From assembly GCA_965198945.1 (NCBI GenBank), contig CBDAQI010000012.1:42910-106909 (forward strand): a DNA stretch of 64,000 bases, written 5' to 3'. This DNA comes from Thermodesulfobacteriota bacterium. Its GTDB lineage: Bacteria; Desulfobacterota_D; UBA1144; Nemesobacterales; Mycalebacteriaceae. A program made the translations under genes and the position numbers. The number at the start of each line of letters is the position of its first letter. The stretch's first letter is position 1. Below the pieces are notes generated by a model. The model was not told the DNA's origin, did not search any database, and was given only the letters and a program-made list of their open reading frames with translations. Positions 4,928 to 61,527 of the stretch are shown here, piece after piece.

Positions 4928-5853
4928 AAAAAGATTTATTAAGTGTTTTTGATGTTTCAAGAACAGATATGGCGGGGATAATCTCCCGTTCTTTTGAACA
5001 CAGGGAGATGCATAAAACGTCCGCCCTTGGCAAGTCGCTTGAGGGCAAAACGGTGGGAATTGTTTTTGAAAAACCGTCAACCCGCACAAGGGTTTCATTT
5101 GAAACCGCCGCCGCGCTGCTCGGCGCTCATCCGGTTTTCATTGATGCCGGCAGCACTCAGATAAACCGGGGGGAAACGTTGGAAGACACGGCGAGAGTCC
5201 TTTCTTCCTACCTTGATATCATAGTGCTGAGAACGCATGAGCAGGAGCGTCTTGAGAGTTTTGCCGCGAGTTCCTCGGTTCCGGTCATAAACGCCTTGAG
5301 TGAGTTGGAGCACCCGACCCAGGCGCTTACGGACATATTTACGATTGCCTCTCAAGACATTGACATAGAGAGTTTCAAGCTTGCGTATTTGGGAGACGGT
5401 AACAATGTTGCAAACTCGCTGGTCGGAATTTCTTCAATTCTGGGATTTGACATAGCGGTCGCCTCACCGCCCGGTTGCGAGCCGGATGAGCAAATGCTTC
5501 AGAGAAGCGGGAAAAGTAACGGCAGGTCTGCGCACATCACAATTACGGACAGTCCCGTTGAAGCGGTTGAAGACGCGGATGTAATCTACACCGATGTCTG
5601 GCTCAGCATGGGACAGGAGGGTGACGCAGACCGAATAATAAAAAATTTTGCCCCCTATCAGGTGAACCCGGAGCTTTTATCGCACGCTCCCTCCGATGCC
5701 GTCATAATGCACTGCCTTCCCGCACACAGAGGCGAAGAGATCACCGCCGAGGTTATGGACGGCGGCAGATTTATCGCTTTTGAGCAGGCTGAAAATAAAC
5801 TACATGTAGCAAAAGCCGTGCTGGAGTTCTGTCTGGGCTGGAAAGGGGAATAG
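4915..5853 (+). CDS. argF: Ornithine carbamoyltransferase
   Basis: STRTRVSFE carbamoyl-phosphate binding motif and HCLPAHRGEE. The protein is 312 aa. The start is TTG 4915 or GTG 4924, 10 nt after a GGGAGG. Confidence 0.9.
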   Translation: MQSVKKDLLSVFDVSRTDMAGIISRSFEHREMHKTSALGKSLEGKTVGIVFEKPSTRTRVSFETAAALLGAHPVFIDAGSTQINRGETLEDTARVLSSYLDIIVLRTHEQERLESFAASSSVPVINALSELEHPTQALTDIFTIASQDIDIESFKLAYLGDGNNVANSLVGISSILGFDIAVASPPGCEPDEQMLQRSGKSNGRSAHITITDSPVEAVEDADVIYTDVWLSMGQEGDADRIIKNFAPYQVNPELLSHAPSDAVIMHCLPAHRGEEITAEVMDGGRFIAFEQAENKLHVAKAVLEFCLGWKGE

Positions 5854-5868
5854 AGATGCGCCGGGTTG

Positions 5869-6429
5869 TTAAATTTTTGAAATCTTCGGCGGCGTAATTC
5901 CCTTCTGTTTCTGATACTTTCCCTTCTTGTCGGCATAGGATTTTTCACAGGCTTCGTCGCCTTCAAAAAACAGAACCTGTGCTATGCCCTCTCCGGCATA
6001 TATTTTTGCGGGGAGCGGGGTTGTGTTTGAGATTTCAAGCGTTACGAATCCCTCCCATTCGGGCTCAAAAGGCGTTACATTCACTATTATTCCGCAACGC
6101 GCATATGTTGATTTGCCTACACACAGGGTCAGCACATTGCGCGGGATTCTGAAATATTCAACCGTTCTTGCAAGGGCAAAGGAATTCGGAGGAATTACGC
6201 AGTCTCCTTTAATTGACACAAACGATTTTTTATCAAAGTTTTTTGGGTCAACAAAAGTGCTGTGAATGTTTGTAAAGACCTGGAATTCACTGCTCACCCT
6301 TATGTCGTAACCATATGAGGAAAGCCCGTATGATATTTTGCCCTTGCTCACTTGTGATTTCACAAACGGCTCTATCATCCCGGACTCGCGAGCCATTTTT
6401 TTTATCCATCCGTCTGATTTTATTCCCAT
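5869..6429 (-). CDS. dcd: dCTP deaminase
   Basis: 186 aa. The N-terminus [15 protein letters not shown] and the overall pattern match Dcd. Confidence 0.85.
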
Positions 6430-17636: not shown

Positions 17637-18364
17637 TATTCAGCCTTGAGATGCTCCACTCCCTGAGCTCCTGAAACCAGGATGTCGGTCGTGGTTGTGA
17701 GAAAAAGACCGTGCTCAACAATTCCCGACCTCCACACCAGAGATTCGGCGATGATTTTCAAGTCGTAGATGGGCCCGAAATCACAGTCCAGTATGTAGTT
17801 TTTCTCATCCGTTTTGAAGATTCCGCCGTTTTCATCTTTTCTGAGTTCCATTGAGGCGGCGCCCAGAGAGGAGATAAACCTCCGCGCCGGTTTTACCGCA
17901 AAAGGTATTACTTCAACTGGAAGACGGCAGCGTGTTCCCAGTTTTTCCGACAATTTGCTTTGGTCAACAACTATTATGTTTCTTGAACTTTCCTGCGCCA
18001 CAACTTTTTCGCGCAGCATCGCCCCCCCCCCCCCTTTTATGACATTGAGTTTGCGGTCAACCTCGTCCGCCCCGTCTATTGTTATGTCTATGGCCTTGTC
18101 CCGGGTGAACTCGCTGTCTATTTTAAGGCCGAGAGATTTTGCGTATTTTTCAGTCTTAATTGAGCTCGGCACACAGGCTATGTTTTCAATCAGCTCCGCG
18201 CGGAACTTTTCGGCAAGATATTCAATCGCAAAGGTGGCGGCTTTGCCCGTGCCCAAACCCACCACCATGTCCGAGCAGACAAAATCAACGGCCATTGAAG
18301 CCGATCTTTTTATTGCCTCGTCCGGAACCTCCCGCCTCGGAGGTTTGCCTTTGTAAATACCCAT
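17636..18364 (-). CDS. rpiA: Ribose-5-phosphate isomerase A
   Basis: MVVGLGTGKAATFAIEYL and the conserved KGGGGAMLREK motif. The ORF extends to 18412, but the likely start is the Met at 18364. Confidence 0.88.
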   Translation of the reverse strand: MGIYKGKPPRREVPDEAIKRSASMAVDFVCSDMVVGLGTGKAATFAIEYLAEKFRAELIENIACVPSSIKTEKYAKSLGLKIDSEFTRDKAIDITIDGADEVDRKLNVIKGGGGAMLREKVVAQESSRNIIVVDQSKLSEKLGTRCRLPVEVIPFAVKPARRFISSLGAASMELRKDENGGIFKTDEKNYILDCDFGPIYDLKIIAESLVWRSGIVEHGLFLTTTTDILVSGAQGVEHLKAE

Positions 18365-53168: not shown

Positions 53169-54761
53169 TCAGTCAAAACTTCTGTAACGCCCCTTTTGAA
53201 TTATCACTACCGCCAGCAGGCGAAGTGCGAGCCCCAGGGCGCACGCCGTTATAAGAAGCATTCCAAGCTCCGAATAGTTCGCTGCGGTTTGTATGATTTG
53301 AGTCGCTCCGTTTCTGATTTCGCGCGTTACGACAAAGATTTCATTCATATATTTTGTTCCGAGGCTGCTTGCCGACAGTGAAATGTTTGAAAATGACGCA
53401 AAGACTGCAAAAAAGGTCGCTTTGAGGTGTTCCGGGGCGTTTTTTGCTATCCATGCAAGCATTGGTATCATCGCCACCTGTCCGAACGGGGATTCAAGAG
53501 CCGTGTTTACGATCGCTATGAACTTTGCATCCACGACTCCGTTTGTGTGTGCGGCGGTCCATTCATGAATTCCGTAAAAAAGCCCGATTCCGGGAAGCGC
53601 CATAACCGCATCAAGAATTGATAAAAACAATATGATGCCCACTATGCTGACCCTGCTCATCAGCGGCAGAGAGACCATCATTCCCACAAGCGTGAAAACG
53701 GAAACTATCAGATACAGATAAGACAGAAATTGCTCGTCAAACCCGAGTTCGTCTATTTGAAACCATCCCTCTCCCGGTCCCACTCCCGGAACGGCACGAA
53801 AAACAAAAATGATCACCGCCGTTCCTATGAGTGTCGCTCGTGATTTGTCCGGCAGTTCGGCAATCAGTTTTCTCATAAGGAAGATGATGATTGCCATTGA
53901 ACCCGCAAAAACTATTTCCTGGGAATAGGCTATTCCCGAAAGTCCCGTTCCGATTGTGAACGCCACAAAAATCATGCTTCCGCCGAGAATCCACCAGTTG
54001 ACCGAAATATTGGAATTTTCTCTTTCCCTGCTTATTCTGCCCTTCCTTTTAAGAAATTCGGCGAAAACAACTCCAATTATGGAGACAAGAGGAATTGCAA
54101 GCGCCATAAGATAGATATTGCCGTAAGTGATGACTTTCTGTTCCTCGCTCAGTTCTGAGACTCCGCTGAAAGCTATGATATTGATTATTGAAACCAGAAC
54201 GGTGCCTCCGATAATCGCTACTCTGCCGAGAGTCTGCATTGTGGTATGCATGGATTTCAGGGTTTTTTCATCAAATTTTTCACCGTTTTCATCTTTTTCG
54301 GGAACTGCCTCAACGGTCATCGCGTCTGCAACCACATCCTGAAGCATGTATCCAACCGGGCTTATAATTACGCTCAGAATAAACCAGCTTGAACCCGACA
54401 TGAACTGTTTCATATAAGCGGTGTGCGCTATCAGACCGTAGACAATCAGAAGTCCCGCCGAAATCAGCGCCGCCCCTAAGAAAATCAGTATGGATTTCCA
54501 GCGCCATATCAGGTCAACAATGTGTCCGATTGGCATTTTCAGAGCCCACGGAAGGCCCGCCCAGAAGCCCAGTCCCGCGAGGAAAGCGGCCGACAGATCA
54601 AGGTAGTCTTTGATAAAAAATGTGCCGACAATTCCGGTAATTCCCGATATTCCGGCCGCCAGATACACCATGAGCGGCGGGATGTAGCTAAGCCGCATCT
54701 GTCTGAAAAGATTTATGAGATCGGTTGCGAAGGATATGAAATTGCGGATTAGTCTATTCAT
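53169..54761 (-). CDS. Folate-biopterin transporter (BT1/FBT family MFS)
   Basis: FIKDYLDLSAAFLAGLGFWAGLPWALKMPIGHIVD matches the BT1-family YLKDDL..LPW.iKP.yG..SD signature. There are about 12 TM helices. Confidence 0.7.
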   Translation of the reverse strand: MNRLIRNFISFATDLINLFRQMRLSYIPPLMVYLAAGISGITGIVGTFFIKDYLDLSAAFLAGLGFWAGLPWALKMPIGHIVDLIWRWKSILIFLGAALISAGLLIVYGLIAHTAYMKQFMSGSSWFILSVIISPVGYMLQDVVADAMTVEAVPEKDENGEKFDEKTLKSMHTTMQTLGRVAIIGGTVLVSIINIIAFSGVSELSEEQKVITYGNIYLMALAIPLVSIIGVVFAEFLKRKGRISRERENSNISVNWWILGGSMIFVAFTIGTGLSGIAYSQEIVFAGSMAIIIFLMRKLIAELPDKSRATLIGTAVIIFVFRAVPGVGPGEGWFQIDELGFDEQFLSYLYLIVSVFTLVGMMVSLPLMSRVSIVGIILFLSILDAVMALPGIGLFYGIHEWTAAHTNGVVDAKFIAIVNTALESPFGQVAMIPMLAWIAKNAPEHLKATFFAVFASFSNISLSASSLGTKYMNEIFVVTREIRNGATQIIQTAANYSELGMLLITACALGLALRLLAVVIIQKGRYRSFD

Positions 54762-55147
54762 TTTTTAGGAAGGCGGGTTTTGAAGCCAAGAGGGTAATTT
54801 ATTGGATGTTTTTTGCAAATTGGCTTGGTAGGAGGGAGTGAAAATTTTCCGTAGTTAAGTTTTTCTTCCTGAAAAGATTTCAGGTTGTGATTTTTTGCCG
54901 ACAATTACATTATGAATACTGGATTCCCGTTTGCAAGGGAATGACGATGGGGAGTTTTTCCCGCAATTCCCATTTTCCCGTCATTTCCGCAAAAGCATGT
55001 CCCCGTGAAAGCTTGTCCTCATGAAAATGGGGACGGCAATTCAGAAGGCATGGGGAGCAAAACATAGCAAGCGGGACACCAAGTCATATTTCACTCAGTT
55101 CAAACAGAAGTATGAACAGGGGGGTGAGCGGAGCCGAACCCCGAAAC

Positions 55148-55447
55148 GTTGTGAATTGAGGGCAGGTTTCAGTCAGTTACAATTCCTTGAGTTGTCCACA
55201 ATTTTCAACACTAGTTGTGAATTGAGGGCAGGTTTCAGTCAGTTACAATCTGGGAGCAAAGCGAATGGGGGGCGAAACAGTTGTGAATTGAGGGCAGGTT
55301 TCAGTCAGTTACAATTCCTTGAGTTGTCCACAATTTTCAACACTAGTTGTGAATTGAGGGCAGGTTTCAGTCAGTTACAATCTGGGAGCAAAGCGAATGG
55401 GGGGCGAAACAGTTGTGAATTGAGGGCAGGTTTCAGTCAGTTACAAT
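55148..55447 (+). CRISPR. CRISPR array with five 36-bp direct repeats (GTTGTGAATTGAGGGCAGGTTTCAGTCAGTTACAAT) and four 30-bp spacers. Spacer 1 equals spacer 3 and spacer 2 equals spacer 4.
   Basis: Repeats lie at 55148-55183, 55214-55249, 55280-55315, 55346-55381 and 55412-55447 and are identical. The spacers are tccttgagttgtccacaattttcaacacta and ctgggagcaaagcgaatggggggcgaaaca, each present twice. The array is adjacent to cas2. Confidence 0.95.
55157..55183 (+). promoter_or_regulatory. Putative repeat-embedded sigma70-like promoter (TTGAGG, 16 nt, TACAAT). It recurs in every CRISPR repeat.
   Basis: Within the repeat, TTGAGG sits at repeat positions 9-14 and TACAAT at 31-36, 16 nt apart. The arrangement resembles the repeat-internal promoters described for Neisseria type II-C arrays. 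Confidence 0.45.
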
Positions 55448-55497
55448 AGCTATCCCTCAAATGCAATGGTGGCAAGGGGTTATGGCTCTCCGGCAAA

Positions 55498-55827
55498 TCA
55501 AAAAAGAGTGATTTGCTGGGGAGTTGTCTCCGCCTTCTTCCGTTTCTTCCCATAAAACACCTGCATTCGTCCGAACTGTTTGTCCGTAATAATAATCACC
55601 CGCACTTCTCCTTGCGGAGGCAGCCACTCTCTCACTCTTCCCGAATGAACAAATGCATTTTCTTCACTTGCGCAATGTCTGGCATATACGGAGAACTGCA
55701 TCATTATAAATCCGTCCCGCATAATATGCTTTCTAAATCTTGCGTAGTCTTTCCGTGCCTTCTTCGTGTCTGTTGGAAGGTCAAACATCACTATTACCCA
55801 CATAGTTCTGTATCCTCCGAAAGCCAT
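55498..55827 (-). CDS. cas2: CRISPR-associated endoribonuclease Cas2 (type II)
   Basis: VIVMFDLPTDTKKARKDYARFRKHIMRDGFIMMQFSVYARH parallels S. pyogenes Cas2 ([39 protein letters not shown]). Confidence 0.92.
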   Translation of the reverse strand: MAFGGYRTMWVIVMFDLPTDTKKARKDYARFRKHIMRDGFIMMQFSVYARHCASEENAFVHSGRVREWLPPQGEVRVIIITDKQFGRMQVFYGKKRKKAETTPQQITLF

Positions 55828-55829
55828 TT

Positions 55830-56738
55830 CTAAACCTCAATTCTCATTTGTCTGTTTTCAATCAGTTCCGGTATTTTCAAACACTCAACCCCTTCTGAAA
55901 AAGCTTTCTTAAGGCTCGCCGCCATATGCTGGTTTGCCACCATCATCGGCAGTTTCTTTCCTTCAAACAGAACATCTTCTGAAAGAAGAGACAGCAATGA
56001 CATTTTTGTTGTAGTATCAATCTCATTTCTCCCATGCTCGTTCAGTTCATAAACACGTCTGTCAACAAGAGGACGCAACGGTTCAATAAGGTCGTCCGCA
56101 AGGCACATCGGGTTATATTGGTTGTGGTGATGAATCCCGAGCGCCGGATGAAGCCCCGTTCCGCACAAAGCACGGGCGACGGATGCTCTGACGATGCTGT
56201 ATCCGTAGTTGAGTAGAGAGTTGATTCCTTCTTCTTTGTAATTTCTGGAAAACTGTTTTCCAAACAGTTTTGACCAGTATACCCTCGCCGCCTGCGCCTC
56301 AATATTTCTCGTGTCACCGCTTAAGACTCTTTTTTTGAATCCGGGAAGAGGGGAGGGGTCTTTTTTGAAAAAAAGCAGTGTCCGAATCTGTGCTTCTGTT
56401 TTGGCAATTATGACTTTCTGCCAGAGTCGTTTTTTTAGAGGTTTTTTGACGCCCGTCTGTAAATTGAGGACTTTGCTGTGGGTTGAATTGCCGGAAAGGG
56501 GTAGCAAAACGGAAACCGGAAGATGGCTCCGGTCACAAAAAACTATTATGCAGTTGTTTTTCTGACATTCGGCTATGAGGCTCTGAGAGATTGAAATTGC
56601 GGGATTGGCAAGTATGAGAATTCCCATGTCTTCTACGGGAATACTGCTTTCTTTTTCACCGTCTTTTTTGATAATCATCTGATAATCTTTCAGATGAAGA
56701 TATGCAGGGTTGCTGACTTCAGTGATTCGCTTGATCAT
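55830..56738 (-). CDS. cas1: CRISPR-associated endonuclease Cas1 (type II)
   Basis: 302 aa. ...VYWSKLFGKQFSRNYKE...NYGYSIVRASVARAL...HHHNQYNPMCLADDLIEPLRPLVD matches the type II Cas1 catalytic core. Confidence 0.92.
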   Translation of the reverse strand: MIKRITEVSNPAYLHLKDYQMIIKKDGEKESSIPVEDMGILILANPAISISQSLIAECQKNNCIIVFCDRSHLPVSVLLPLSGNSTHSKVLNLQTGVKKPLKKRLWQKVIIAKTEAQIRTLLFFKKDPSPLPGFKKRVLSGDTRNIEAQAARVYWSKLFGKQFSRNYKEEGINSLLNYGYSIVRASVARALCGTGLHPALGIHHHNQYNPMCLADDLIEPLRPLVDRRVYELNEHGRNEIDTTTKMSLLSLLSEDVLFEGKKLPMMVANQHMAASLKKAFSEGVECLKIPELIENRQMRIEV

Positions 56739-56744
56739 TATGGA

Positions 56745-59700
56745 CTAAATTGTGTTTGTAAGGCTAAAACCTAAAGAGTTAATGGACTCTTTTTGCAATT
56801 TGTATTTAGTCATTAGGATGGAAATTGTCCTGCTTAGTTTTTCTTCATTATTATCGAGCGTGGCGGCGGAGTGAAGTCTTAGCCATAGTATTTCTCCTTC
56901 TCTTTGGAATTTTTGCACTCTGTAAAATCTTCTTTCTCCTTTTTCTTCTACACTTACCGTATCATTTATGCACAAGCTCATAATAAATTTCCAGTCTTCT
57001 CCATGGTCAGTTTTAACAATCGGTTCTCTTGTAATTCTTACTTTTTTTTGCGGCTTCCATTGTGGTTACAAAAACACCTTTGGATCTGTTTGTTTTTTTA
57101 TTCTTGATTATTTCTACATGGTGGCTGTTTCCATAAATCATTACACTTAATATTTTGTTACTGTTTTTCTTGGGTTTAAGCCAGTAATTTTTTTCACTAA
57201 ACTCATTAGTTACCCAAACTTTTGCCCGTCTGACAATATCTCCGGTTTTTGGATGCTTAAAAGCTTCTTCTTGCAGTTTTTTTTGAGCGCTTTTTAAGCC
57301 TCCTCTCATATTTACATATTGTTCAAATCCTTCTCTGATTGCCGGACATACTATATTTCTCAAATTTTTGTCCGTCATACCAGTCAGATTTTTGCTAACG
57401 ACGATTCTCTTTTTACCATTGTCTTCTTTTATTCCATATGCGGTATCTTCATGGAATGCTCCCGTCAGTTTTCTATTTGTCGCGTGAGAGACAATCATTT
57501 TATTTGTCGCGCTTTCCAACTCATTCCTAAGGTTTTCAAGCACCTGCGGTATTTCCAATCCCGATTCTGGAGATATGGAATCATCATCCGCTTTTGAAGC
57601 GAGATGTACCACCTTTTGATATAGGCTTCTGTTTGTAAGGGCAATGACCGTTGCGTCAATCGCGTGATGCCTATGGTCGTTACGGTTTTTCTCTCCCGTA
57701 TCTCCAAGGATGTTGTTCAGTCCCCATTGTCTTCGGAGCCAGCTTGTTATTCCGCCTTTGGTGAAAGTTACATCACAGCCGAGTGTTCTAATGTAATTTC
57801 CCGTTTCTTTTGCGATATAGCGGGCGTCTGATAACTGGCTGTTGATGAAATCTTCAATTCCATCCAACTTTTTTGTCAGAATTTTTCTGCGTTTTGCTTC
57901 GGGATAATTCTTGAGTTTTGCTATGGCTTCAATATTTTCCCATTGCTCTGTATTACCAAATGCTTCCCATGGTGTTCTGTTGCCTTTCTTCCTATTTTCC
58001 TCCGCAAGACAGACCGTCTTGTTCATATAGTAATTATCAAGACTCCTGCTGTATGGGAGTATGTGGTCTATTTCAACATCAGCAGACCAGAGTTGTGTCA
58101 GTCCTATAGGTTTCCCACTGTATAAACATTTACCTTCATTTTCTTTCCAGAGTCTGTATTTCTGTTTGTCCTGATGGCTTATGTATGTTTTCAACTGCAG
58201 GCCGGGTTCCTGCTCTTTTATGCTGTTGTATTTTTCTTCCGCTTCTTCATTTTCTTCTGTGTTTTTCTTTTGTCTTTCCAGTGCTTTTCTGTATTTCTCC
58301 GTATTCATTTCCAAATCACGAGACATTTCTATTCGTATCGCGGTTGGTTTTCCATATTCTTTGATAATTGCATTTACGACACGGCGAACTTCATATAACG
58401 CCTTTGTAACAATGGGGTTTGGTATAAAGGGAATTTCTCCAAGAGTTTCTTTGTTTCCGGTTTCCGGCGTTGTAATATCTTCGTAACCGGCAATTTGAAC
58501 CGCTCCTTTTTCTTCTTCTATGTCACTTTCTCGGCTGTAAACCCTGCCTTGCTTAAGGTGAGGCAGAATTTTGTTTATTGCTTTCAGGGACAGATTTCCG
58601 TGTCCCTTTTCCAATTCAAGAACCGCAAGTTTTGTTGCTTTTTCCGAGTCAATATCCGGGTAGTTTTGAAGACGTTTTTTCAGTCCCTTTTTGGATTCGT
58701 ATGAAATCAGATCTTCCACAAGCTGTTTTTGTTTTTTCTCATCAAAGGAGTCCCACAAGTCTCCAATTATTTCTCTGATTCCACAGGCGGTTTTGTTTCC
58801 CTGAATGCCTTTTCTGCTTTTTCCTTCAACTTTGTACAAATTGAACTTTGTTTTCTTATTCAGGTTGAGGATTTCTTTTCCTCTGATCTTTGCCCATGTC
58901 AGATTTCTGTTTTTTTTCAAGTGCTTCGGCAATCAGTTTTTTCTGATCTGGCGAGGGTTTTGCATCTTTTTCTCCCGTTTCAGTGTCATCCCAACTTAAA
59001 TTGTTTATGTCCTGCCAGTAACGGAATTGCTGAAACTCAAGTCGTCCCATATCTACTCTTCTCTTTTTTGGTTCAAGAGAGCAGTTTCCTATGGTTTTCT
59101 TGTCCCAGGTTACGGGACGTTGGTGAAAGATAATTTTCTCAATTGCGCTTCTTACATCTTCAGTGTAAATCTTCGGGTTTAGTTCGGACTGTTTACGGAA
59201 GATTTTTTCAAACTCTTCCTGATACATTCTGCGGTCTGTTCTGAGGTCATGAAGTTCTCCTCTGTTGCGTTTTCGGGGCAGGGTTGCAAGATACTCACCG
59301 AGAGTCCTTTTCCCATTTTCGCTTATCTTCTCTCGGAGCTTTTTAATATCTTCTTTGAATTTGCCTTCATCTTTGTCGGTTTCCGCGGCTTCGTCTTCAA
59401 TTTCAAGGATTTCCCGCGCTTCCAAATCTTCACGCAAGTTTCCAAATCCCGTTTTGCGGTTGCTTAAAAATCCCCGTCGTGTTCCCAGATGCATTATTGC
59501 GCGTCCAAACTCATGTGGGGTCAAAATATCATCTAATCCTTTCGCTCTTATCTGATATGGATCTCCAAGCTTATTAAATTCCGATTCCAGGTTTGGCTCG
59601 TCTTTGAGCGTCTCCGGCAGAAATCCCCTGCTTATAAGGTAGTTGCGAAGACGCAATTTACGTCTGTGCCGCCGTTCAATGACACGCCTTAAAAGACGTT

Positions 59701-59884
59701 TTGCTCTGCGGTGTTGGTTTTTCGGAGTGGGTGTTTTGTCTTCAACGGAGCGTATGAATATACGGCTTCCACAATCAATAAAATTTTTCGGTTTGCCTTG
59801 TTCTTCCTCAATGACGCTCCAGCCGATTGAGTTTGTGCCCATATCAAGACCAATTGCATATTCAGATAGTTTTGTCTTTTTCAT
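56745..59884 (-). CDS. cas9: Cas9 (compact, type II-C-like, about 1046 aa). Its reading frame is split into three ORFs by two single-base frameshifts in A8/T8 homopolymers, at about 58910-58917 and 57042-57049.
   Basis: N-terminal RuvC-I motif YAIGLDMGTNSIGWSVIEE in ORF 58856..59884. HNH motif (DHILPYSRSLDNYYMNKTVCLAEENRKKGNRTPWEAF) and RuvC-III in ORF 57013..58932. The C-terminal PI-like tail is ORF 56745..56981 (...LWLRLHSAATLDNNEEKL...). Removing one A from each A8 run joins the three frames seamlessly. Confidence 0.9.
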
Positions 59885-59934
59885 TTTCTCATCCCTTGAC
59901 AGAATTTTTTCTGTAGTATAGTAATATTAGTATA

Positions 59935-60053
59935 TTATAATTGACTGAAACCTGTCCAAGCATTTTTTCTATTCATAACAAGAAACTAATGTTTCGCAGG
60001 ATAACCAGGGTAAACCTAATCGCCTCTCGCCTTAGGGCAGGGGCGATTTTTTT
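59935..60053 (+). ncRNA. Putative tracrRNA, encoded divergently from cas9
   Basis: An anti-repeat at 59943-59985 (TGACTGAAACCTGTCC...ATTCATAACAAG) is complementary to the 5' half of the CRISPR repeat, with a central bulge. A TATAAT at 59936-59941 overlaps its start. A downstream hairpin TCGCC-N10-GGCGA plus a T7 run (60047-60053) looks like an intrinsic terminator. Confidence 0.7.
60021..60053 (+). terminator. Rho-independent terminator of the putative tracrRNA
   Basis: GC-rich hairpin (ctcgcc ttagggcagg ggcga) followed by ttttttt. Confidence 0.6.
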
Positions 60054-60093
60054 ATCTTCTTTCAAGTATGTAAACTCACTTCCGTAGCAAAAA

Positions 60094-61527
60094 ATGAAAA
60101 TCCCTCTCCAATTTCAATCCGATTTCCCCCCTGCGGGCGAGCTTGAAGTCACAACCCCTTTTAACGGTCAAGTTATCGCAACTGTGGAAACGGCCGGGGA
60201 AAAACATCTGGACGGTCTTTTTGAAACCGCAAAAAAACTTTATGAAAACCGTGAGGGCTGGCTTACCGTTCACCAAAGGGCGCAAATTCTGGAACGGGCT
60301 TCTTCAATAATCACCGAACGCATGGACGATTTGATAATTCAGGCGGCGCGTGAGGGTGGAAAACCCTATAACGATTCAAAAGTGGAAATTTACAGAGCGG
60401 CGGACAGCGCAAAAATCGCCGCGGAAACAATTCGCACCGAAGCGGGAAATGTTATTCCGATGGGCGGTGATCTTTACAGCGCGAACAGAGCGGCTTTTAC
60501 ACAAAAAGAGCCGATTGGGGTTGTCGTTGCGGTCAGCGCTTTTAATCATCCGCTTAACCTTATAGTTCATCAGGCGGGCGCCGCAATTGCCGCCGGATGT
60601 CCGGTTATCATCAAGCCCGCGAGTGAAACGCCGCTTTCATGCATATCCTTCAAAAACATACTCGTTGAAGCGGGGCTGCCGCCCGACTGGTGTCAGGTTG
60701 TTGTTACCGATTCAAACGAAACGGCTCAACTGCTCGCAACCGACAGGAGGACGGCGTTTTTCAGTTTTATAGGAAGCTCGCGGGTCGGCTGGATGCTGCG
60801 CTCCAAACTCGCTCCGGGAACACGCTGCGCCCTTGAACACGGCGGAGTGGCGCCGGCGCTTGTGTATGAAGACTCGGATATTGAACGCACCGCGTCTCTG
60901 CTTGCCAAAGGAGGCTTCTATCACGCGGGGCAGGTTTGCGTTTCCACCCAGCGCGTCTATGTGCAAAAAAATATCGCACCGAACTTTCTCTCATTTTTCC
61001 GCAGCGAAGCGGAAAGTCTTAAAGTCGGAGACCCCGCGCTTGAATCAACTCAAGTGGGGCCGCTTATCCGCCCGTCGGAAGTCAGGCGCGTTCACGAGTG
61101 GGTTTGTGAGGCCGTCAGCGAGGGAGCTGAACTTGTCTGCGGCGGAAACATTCTGTTTGACAGATGTTACGAACCGACCATTTTGCTCAACCCTCCGGAT
61201 GCCGTTCGCGCCAGCCGTGAGGAAATTTTCGGTCCCGTGGTCTGCGTTTATGAGGTTGACGACATGGAAGATGCGATTGCGCGCGCGAACGGTCTTGGCA
61301 TGGCGTTTCAATCTTCGGTTTTTACAAAAAATCTTGACACCGCTCTTGCCGCCGTGAAAAAATTGAGCGCTTCAGGCGTTATGGTGAATGATCACACCGC
61401 GTTCCGCATAGACGGAATGCCCTTCGGAGGGCTGAAGCAGTCCGGCCTCGGAACCGGCGGCATTCCGCACACAATCAGAGATATGAGCATGGAGAAAATG
61501 GTTGTTTTCCGCTCAGACGCGATTTAG
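60094..61527 (+). CDS. NAD(P)-dependent aldehyde dehydrogenase family protein
   Basis: 477 aa with the ALDH family pattern (catalytic region ...EHGGVAPALV..., GQVCVSTQRVYV with the catalytic Cys, and a glycine motif). Confidence 0.85.
   Translation: MKIPLQFQSDFPPAGELEVTTPFNGQVIATVETAGEKHLDGLFETAKKLYENREGWLTVHQRAQILERASSIITERMDDLIIQAAREGGKPYNDSKVEIYRAADSAKIAAETIRTEAGNVIPMGGDLYSANRAAFTQKEPIGVVVAVSAFNHPLNLIVHQAGAAIAAGCPVIIKPASETPLSCISFKNILVEAGLPPDWCQVVVTDSNETAQLLATDRRTAFFSFIGSSRVGWMLRSKLAPGTRCALEHGGVAPALVYEDSDIERTASLLAKGGFYHAGQVCVSTQRVYVQKNIAPNFLSFFRSEAESLKVGDPALESTQVGPLIRPSEVRRVHEWVCEAVSEGAELVCGGNILFDRCYEPTILLNPPDAVRASREEIFGPVVCVYEVDDMEDAIARANGLGMAFQSSVFTKNLDTALAAVKKLSASGVMVNDHTAFRIDGMPFGGLKQSGLGTGGIPHTIRDMSMEKMVVFRSDAI

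Follow-up and report, generated by a model that had tools for sequence, protein, structure and literature searches.

The Cas9 of Geobacillus stearothermophilus (GeoCas9) is a type II-C enzyme of approximately 1,087 amino acids whose guide consists of a crRNA:tracrRNA duplex and 3' hairpins. For Neisseria, Zhang et al. reportedly noted in 2013 that the 3' end of the CRISPR repeat looks like a -10 box. The curated tracrRNA family of Rfam, which we take to be RF02348, represents the Streptococcus-type RNA of type II-A systems. The type II-C arrays of Neisseria meningitidis and Campylobacter jejuni are known to be transcribed in the direction opposite to that of the cas operon (PMC3737331). The sequences of tracrRNAs are not conserved across Cas9 clades, and a location upstream of cas9 is one of the four positions in which an anti-repeat is typically found (PMC3737331). 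Our literature searches found no paper joining the Dadabacteria with Cas9 and no published guide sequence for the clade of Cas9 proteins of approximately 1,040 amino acids considered here; the scaffold motifs described below were found in no paper, and a similar repeat was found quoted in one unrelated paper on a sponge symbiont only.

Our analysis covered a stretch of 64,000 nucleotides (the window). Positions 59934-60053 of its forward (+) strand are, with a probability that we put at close to nine in ten, the gene that encodes the tracrRNA of a type II-C CRISPR-Cas9 locus in an uncultured, marine, Dadabacteria-like bacterium. An earlier note on this DNA had proposed a tracrRNA with an anti-repeat, a bulge and a terminator, divergent from cas9, and a comparison with 54 related loci supports that proposal. 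The candidate is encoded beside cas9 and a CRISPR array. The cas genes are all on the - strand and, with the array, span 59884 to 55148; the locus is flanked by genes for an MFS-like transporter and an aldehyde dehydrogenase. The main features are as follows.

55148-55447 (putative crRNA sense +): CRISPR array of five identical 36-nt repeats (GTTGTGAATTGAGGGCAGGTTTCAGTCAGTTACAAT, + strand) and four 30-nt spacers
55498-55827 (-): cas2, intact (TIGR01573, 73 bits)
55830-56738 (-): cas1, intact (TIGR03639, 286 bits)
56745-59884 (-): cas9, type II-C, approximately 1,045 amino acids if repaired, in three ORFs split by +1 frameshifts
60094-61527 (+): aldehyde dehydrogenase gene, starting approximately 40 nt past the tracrRNA terminator and on the same strand

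The operon comprises cas9, cas1 and cas2, with no fourth cas gene (neither csn2 nor cas4), and this minimal composition is that of a type II-C system. Matches to TIGR01865 run over cas9 (model positions 1-957), and the compact Cas9 is related to known II-C enzymes. The tracrRNA feature lies within the 209 nt that separate the cas9 start (59884, -) from the aldehyde dehydrogenase gene (60094, +); its anti-repeat begins at a distance of 49 nt from the cas9 ATG, on the upstream side, and the array lies 4.5 kb away, past cas1 and cas2. The same aldehyde dehydrogenase neighbour (ATGAAAATCCCT...) is present downstream of the tracrRNA of one relative, L071, so the CRISPR locus has the same chromosomal position in both genomes.

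The spacers of the array follow the order S1, S2, S1, S2, i.e., there are only two distinct spacers in a 132-bp tandem duplication of 99% identity. The 6 nt directly ahead of the first repeat, CGAAAC, resemble the end of S2. No protospacer for either spacer was found in a collection of viral contigs, and self-matches within the 64-kb window reached 11 nt at most, none of them meaningful. The ratio of G·U to A·C pairs given below points to transcription of the array from the + strand, against the direction of the cas genes. Throughout the Cas9 clade (L001-L080), all full-length repeat consensuses recovered end in TAnnnT (TACACT, TACAAT, TATACT, TAAAAT and others), usually with a G three bases before the hexamer, at the -14 position. 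These repeat ends fit repeat-internal promoters of the kind seen in Neisseria and Campylobacter, and would be compatible with crRNAs produced independently of RNase III.

The candidate RNA can be divided into a part that pairs with the repeat and a 3' scaffold, with the following elements.

59934-59957 (+): anti-repeat, distal arm ATTATAATTGACTGAAACCTGTCC, pairing with repeat positions 36 to 13
59958-59967 (+): bulge AAGCATTTTT on the tracr side only, 10 nt according to cofold and alignment, of variable length in relatives
59968-59979 (+): anti-repeat, guide-proximal arm TCTATTCATAAC, pairing with repeat positions 12 to 1
59982-59995 (+): hairpin 1, nexus-like (GAAAC-UAAU-GUUUC) by folding, directly after an AA linker
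59998-60017 (+): junction module, with conserved AGG...CCU closing pairs around hairpin 2 (helices 4 and 5)
60018-60053 (+): intrinsic terminator, a G+C-rich hairpin followed by T7 (60047-60053)

The anti-repeat is able to base-pair with the CRISPR repeat. Of the 24 positions of its distal arm, 21 are identical to the reverse complement of repeat positions 13-36; two of the others form G·U wobbles and the third is an A·C mismatch. In the proximal arm, 11 of 12 positions were counted as matching, and one G·U and one U·U are listed for it. Cofolding with the repeat gave -69.6 kcal/mol, the repeat being paired along nearly its full length with no repeat nucleotide looped out, which bears out the pairing originally proposed. 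Two strings picked out in the earlier note are genuine but were misplaced: TGACTGAAACCTGTCC, put at 59943-59958 opposite repeat positions 15-30 with two mismatches, lies at 59942-59957 and is the reverse complement of positions 13-28 with one mismatch (counted from the G at 55148), while ATTCATAAC, put at 59974-59982 opposite repeat positions 1-9, lies at 59971-59979 within the proximal arm, where the pairing extends over 59968-59979 and repeat positions 1-12. Pairing extends over all 36 nt of the repeat rather than over two short segments, and the bulge has 10 nt by cofold, not 15. When up to three mismatches are allowed, the 24-mer is confined within the 64-kb window to the five repeats and to 59934-59957 (0.00 occurrences expected from 100 shuffles). 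Searches of the window with either repeat half (up to three mismatches) and with a covariance model found no further repeat-like sequence and no other anti-repeat. The pair at repeat position 12 is compensatory, being C-G in most relatives and A-U in the window and in L009.

The 3' scaffold is structured and conserved in the clade, with one exception in the window. Hairpin 1 also forms in relatives, its G·U pair switching to A-U or G-C. Hairpin 2 has 4-5 bp in relatives (e.g., ACCTTTCAAGGT in L009) and is shortened in the window, alone of the 54 rows compared, to ACCAGGGT (60004-60011), with a loss of 4 nt; the module containing it is the weakest of 54 rows (-0.8 kcal/mol versus a median of -3.6), and the covariance-model alignment flags non-standard pairs in it. 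The hairpin and T7 of the earlier note were confirmed by a terminator scan, which places the stem at 60027-46, and by folding, which extends it to 60018-60048. This Rho-independent terminator downstream of the anti-repeat covaries in relatives (helix 6), and folding of the last 74 nt at the 3' end gave -27.8 kcal/mol, with a z-score of -4.05.

Homologues of the central cas9 ORF have 55-72% identity when labelled Candidatus Dadabacteria or Mycalebacterium and 42-46% in a larger set; their Cas9 proteins are 1,030-1,090 amino acids long. A scan of one genome per species found 80 loci with this Cas9, and L081 was added by means of a degenerate pattern in metagenomes. Most of the 80 have the order cas9-cas1-cas2-array and a related 36-nt repeat. 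Almost all loci that possess an array have, outside it, the best match to their own repeat upstream of cas9 on the divergent strand, at a distance of 40-100 nt in most loci and 340-440 nt in five SUP05-like loci. The order 3' of the anti-repeat can be aligned: the bulge, (G)CTWTTCATAMC, AA and a small hairpin, CGYAGG, hairpin 2, CC, and a G+C-rich hairpin with a T-run. The hosts include sponge-associated, Dadabacteria-like 'Thermodesulfobacteriota' MAGs, Methylococcales (methanotrophs), Binatia, SUP05-type sulfur oxidisers and others; the nearest relatives in sequence are L009, L001, L008, L070 and L071.

We aligned 54 chimeras, each joining the repeat of a locus to its own candidate tracrRNA through a GAAA linker, and RNAalifold gave a structure of 41 pairs, 25 of them with double-sided changes. 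Standard pairs filled 96.3% of the pair cells, versus 37-44% when partners were slid by 1-3 columns, and none of 500 column shuffles reached the observed values. The covariation of helix 3 (the distal duplex) is partly circular, as each candidate had been chosen as the sequence upstream of cas9 that best matched the repeat; the selection made no use of helices 1-2 (the proximal duplex), 4-5 (the junction and hairpin 2) and 6 (the terminator). Across the 54 loci, G·U cells outnumber A·C cells by 187 to 28, and one G·U (G4·U) is invariant in the proximal duplex while one U·G is present in 50 of 54 terminators. Since G·U pairs would be mismatches on the opposite strands, the strand is fixed as +; this excess, the invariant G4·U and a terminator on the + strand only all indicate that the tracrRNA is read in the same sense as the crRNAs, as the earlier note had held. 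An RNA from the opposite strand, co-directional with cas9, was considered and rejected: there are 49 nt to the ATG, there is no terminator on that strand and the G·U:A·C ratio is 187:28. A covariance model (R1) built independently of the window, from the relatives alone (alignment A3), was run on both strands of the 64 kb, and its top match was 59934-60052 (+), at 67 bits, E = 2e-12 and full model length. The next matches were the CRISPR repeats (E of approximately 0.3), as expected from the anti-repeat portion.

Some individual relatives have unusual arrangements. The tracrRNA of L025 has an internal insertion of approximately 35 nt that repeats the proximal anti-repeat arm (TTTTCATACCAATG ... 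TTTTATACCAATG). In L007, the cas9 match starts at residue 109, no anti-repeat was found upstream and the best repeat-like match is 2.2 kb away; the 5' end of this locus may be rearranged. In the SUP05-like loci L056, L064, L066, L067 and L068, a distance of 320-420 nt separates the tracrRNA gene from cas9, and all five have a lone shortened repeat between the two genes (e.g., GTTGTGATTTGCATAAGCGATAGTC; L067 locus, approximately 5580-6000). For four of the five, the 8-10 nt located 5' of the lone repeat have an exact reverse-complement copy approximately 85 nt away; flank and copy change together from locus to locus, and the copy, read on the cas9-sense strand, precedes GAAAA in three loci and AGAAA in the fourth. 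By analogy with CreR/tracr-L autoregulation, for which we found no description in type II-C systems in the literature, the lone repeat looks like a degenerate mini-CRISPR that would guide Cas9 to its own upstream region. The alternative is that the repeat flank and its copy form a plain inverted repeat.

The promoter that we propose for the tracrRNA gene lies further upstream and overlaps the leader of cas9.

59896-59901 (+): -35 box TTGACA of the putative tracrRNA promoter, from sequence reading and relatives, inside the cas9 5' leader (opposite strand)
59917-59924 (+): -10 candidates, TATAGT at 59917-22 (15-nt spacer) or TAGTAA at 59919-24 (17-nt spacer)

Transcription is predicted to start at approximately 59929-59934, which would give an RNA of approximately 117-125 nt, longer than the 110 nt or so of the earlier note. 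Relatives have TTGACN or TTGCTC, a spacer of 16-17 nt and TATAAT, TATACT or TATATT, the -10 box mostly ending 7-9 nt before the anti-repeat. The window's promoter is weaker than that of L009 (TTGACA-17-AATAAT) or L014 (TTGACC-16-TATAAT). A strict promoter scan found no + strand promoter at this site because of the weaker -10 box and spacing, i.e., a 15-nt spacer or a -10 box without its final T. The TATAAT at 59936-41 is where the earlier note had put it, and was considered as the main promoter, but it is inside the anti-repeat and probably does not have this role: relatives read TTGTAA or GTGTAA at this place and have their promoter further upstream. Two window-specific substitutions, both at non-Watson-Crick positions of the distal arm, create the palindrome ATTATAAT, which may add a start site near 59948, yet this is not the promoter of the family.

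The transcription of cas9 in the other direction must also be considered. Opposite the 5' end of the anti-repeat, the complementary strand has a -10-like hexamer directed at cas9, which reads TATAAT in the window and either TACACT or TACAAT at 38 of 57 loci, and a scan detected a - strand promoter, TGGACA-18-TATACT, from 59958 to 59929. In most loci, a TAnnnT directed at cas9 precedes its start codon by approximately 20-50 nt. The tracrRNA -35 box of many gammaproteobacterial relatives, TTGCTC, lies immediately next to the start codon of cas9 (TTGCTCAT). The anti-repeat might, then, be dual-use DNA whose complement serves as the cas9 -10 box, interleaved back to back with the tracrRNA promoter; we consider this unlikely, and approximately 10 of 57 relatives have no plausible -10 box at the position concerned. 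If it were true, binding of RNA polymerase to the two promoters would be mutually exclusive, and the DNA layout would set the ratio of guide scaffold to Cas9. The compact divergent layout is itself conserved and might couple expression of the tracrRNA and cas9.

We turn now to the alternatives. The one that survives best is that this is a tracrRNA gene by descent which has become, whether transcribed or not, a non-functional relic of a decaying CRISPR locus; we hold this to be possible at somewhat less than even odds. The cas9 gene lacks an intact reading frame in the window, with +1 frameshifts in two A8 runs (cas9 sense) at 58910-58917 (CTTGAAAAAAAACAG) and 57042-57049 (GCCGCAAAAAAAAGT), which justifies the mention of a 'repaired Cas9' in the earlier note. 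Removal of one A from each run restores LEKNRNLTWAKI and AAKKVRITREPIVKT, matching homologues. The other long homopolymers of the window (at least 8 A/T or at least 7 G/C) are mostly deep inside unbroken ORFs, which argues against systematic sequencing error. Also in keeping with decay are the weakness of the hairpin-2 module, the three non-Watson-Crick positions of the anti-repeat, an array of two distinct spacers in duplicate and the lack of protospacers in viral contigs. On the other hand, cas9 contains no stop codons once the two indels are set aside and shares 71-79% identity with an intact homologue, neither cas1 nor cas2 is disrupted, and the anti-repeat, hairpin 1, terminator and -35 box of the tracrRNA gene have all been kept. 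The frameshifts could also be homopolymer sequencing errors, and cas9 changes frame in the related MAG assemblies L006 and L071 as well. Possible explanations of the frameshifts are sequencing error, a pseudogene or the OFF state of a phase-variable gene. No near-identical metagenome copies were found against which the hairpin-2 deletion and the frameshifts could be checked. Taken together, the two frameshifts, the loss of 4 nt from hairpin 2 and an array that is a duplicated two-spacer unit suggest that the CRISPR system of this genome is probably impaired or recently inactivated. With cas9 frameshifted twice, the tracrRNA may have no working partner.

Elsewhere in the window, a run of 13 C at 18022-18034, deep in a long ORF, may be a tract prone to slippage or an artefact of the assembly.

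A second alternative places the main role of the repeat-like sequence on the opposite strand, where a repeat-derived -10 box, belonging to the promoter or leader of cas9, would drive this gene, and supposes that there is no trans-acting RNA. The cas9-facing hexamers and the - strand promoter described above are what this would predict, but it leaves unexplained both the covarying + strand scaffold with its T-run terminator and the excess of G·U pairs. Moreover, the -10 box at the cas9-facing position is poor in several relatives (e.g., TATAAA and TGTGTA). We regard this alternative as very improbable; a promoter function for cas9 would at most be an added role, not a replacement. Lastly, that the feature is a stray, degenerate orphan repeat without function as RNA, located next to a terminator by coincidence, would agree with the view that tracrRNAs derive from degenerate repeats (PMC3737331) and with the lack of an Rfam match, but is effectively refuted by the conservation of position, promoter, scaffold and terminator in 54 loci of several phyla and by compensatory changes in helices unrelated to repeat similarity.

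For a tracrRNA gene, the reading that we prefer, we propose the following mechanism. Transcription would proceed from the promoter with its -35 box in the cas9 leader and end at the hairpin and T7 (60018-60053). The 5' part of the RNA would pair with each whole 36-nt repeat of + strand CRISPR transcripts, while the 3' part would form a Cas9-binding scaffold composed of the nexus-like hairpin, the AGG/CCU-closed junction that contains hairpin 2, and the hairpin of the terminator. If the type II-C systems of Neisseria and Campylobacter are taken as a guide, the crRNA:tracrRNA duplex would load Cas9, which would then target DNA. The Neisseria analogy also suggests that crRNAs may be initiated within the repeats, each of which carries a -10-like TAnnnT box at its 3' end.

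The finding of a tracrRNA beside a type II-C cas9 is routine annotation, and this gene, as an ordinary member of a well-known class, is of minor significance alone. What it offers is the definition of a guide scaffold for a clade of Cas9 proteins of approximately 1,040 amino acids that has no Rfam model. The 54-locus alignment and its covariance model could serve as a ready sgRNA design for the enzymes of this clade. The copy in the window is unsuitable as it stands, with a truncated hairpin 2 and a cognate cas9 that needs two single-base repairs.

How does this locus compare with the known systems? An Rfam scan of 54500-60500 with E values up to 10 gave no match of any kind, including to the curated tracrRNA family. 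The window gene is thus outside that family, a result with no bearing on its functional class: as tracrRNAs are not conserved across Cas9 clades, this clade is one without a curated model. At the level of functional class there is a likeness to the Rfam family, in which an anti-repeat is likewise followed by a Cas9-binding scaffold and a terminator. The best-scoring relative of the window's Cas9 among solved structures is GeoCas9 (8jtj / 8uza, E of approximately 1e-77), and this likeness is at the protein level alone; the repeat and tracr sequences are apparently unrelated.

Nme1 and Nme2 Cas9 are also among the closest solved structures (E of approximately 1e-65 to 1e-67). As in N. meningitidis, the operon is a minimal cas9-cas1-cas2, the repeat has 36 nt, starting with GTTGT and ending with ACAAT, and the array is read opposite to the cas genes (PMC3737331). 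Both duplexes are interrupted after approximately 8-12 bp, and in both the anti-repeat is followed by AAG, hairpins and a terminator. Unlike in N. meningitidis, the tracrRNA gene of the window adjoins cas9 on its upstream side and points away from it, the putative promoters of the two genes being interleaved; the duplex is interrupted by 10 bulged nt on the tracrRNA side alone; and the scaffold has three elements, namely a small hairpin, the closed junction that contains hairpin 2, and the terminator. No sequence similarity was seen beyond the repeat ends, and the similarity of the Cas9 proteins is distant. Within its own clade, the window copy differs from the tracrRNAs of L001-L081 in the 4-nt deletion of hairpin 2, the three non-Watson-Crick positions of the distal arm and the weaker -10 box and spacing. 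It is nonetheless the same gene as theirs, and their covariance model matches it with 67 bits.
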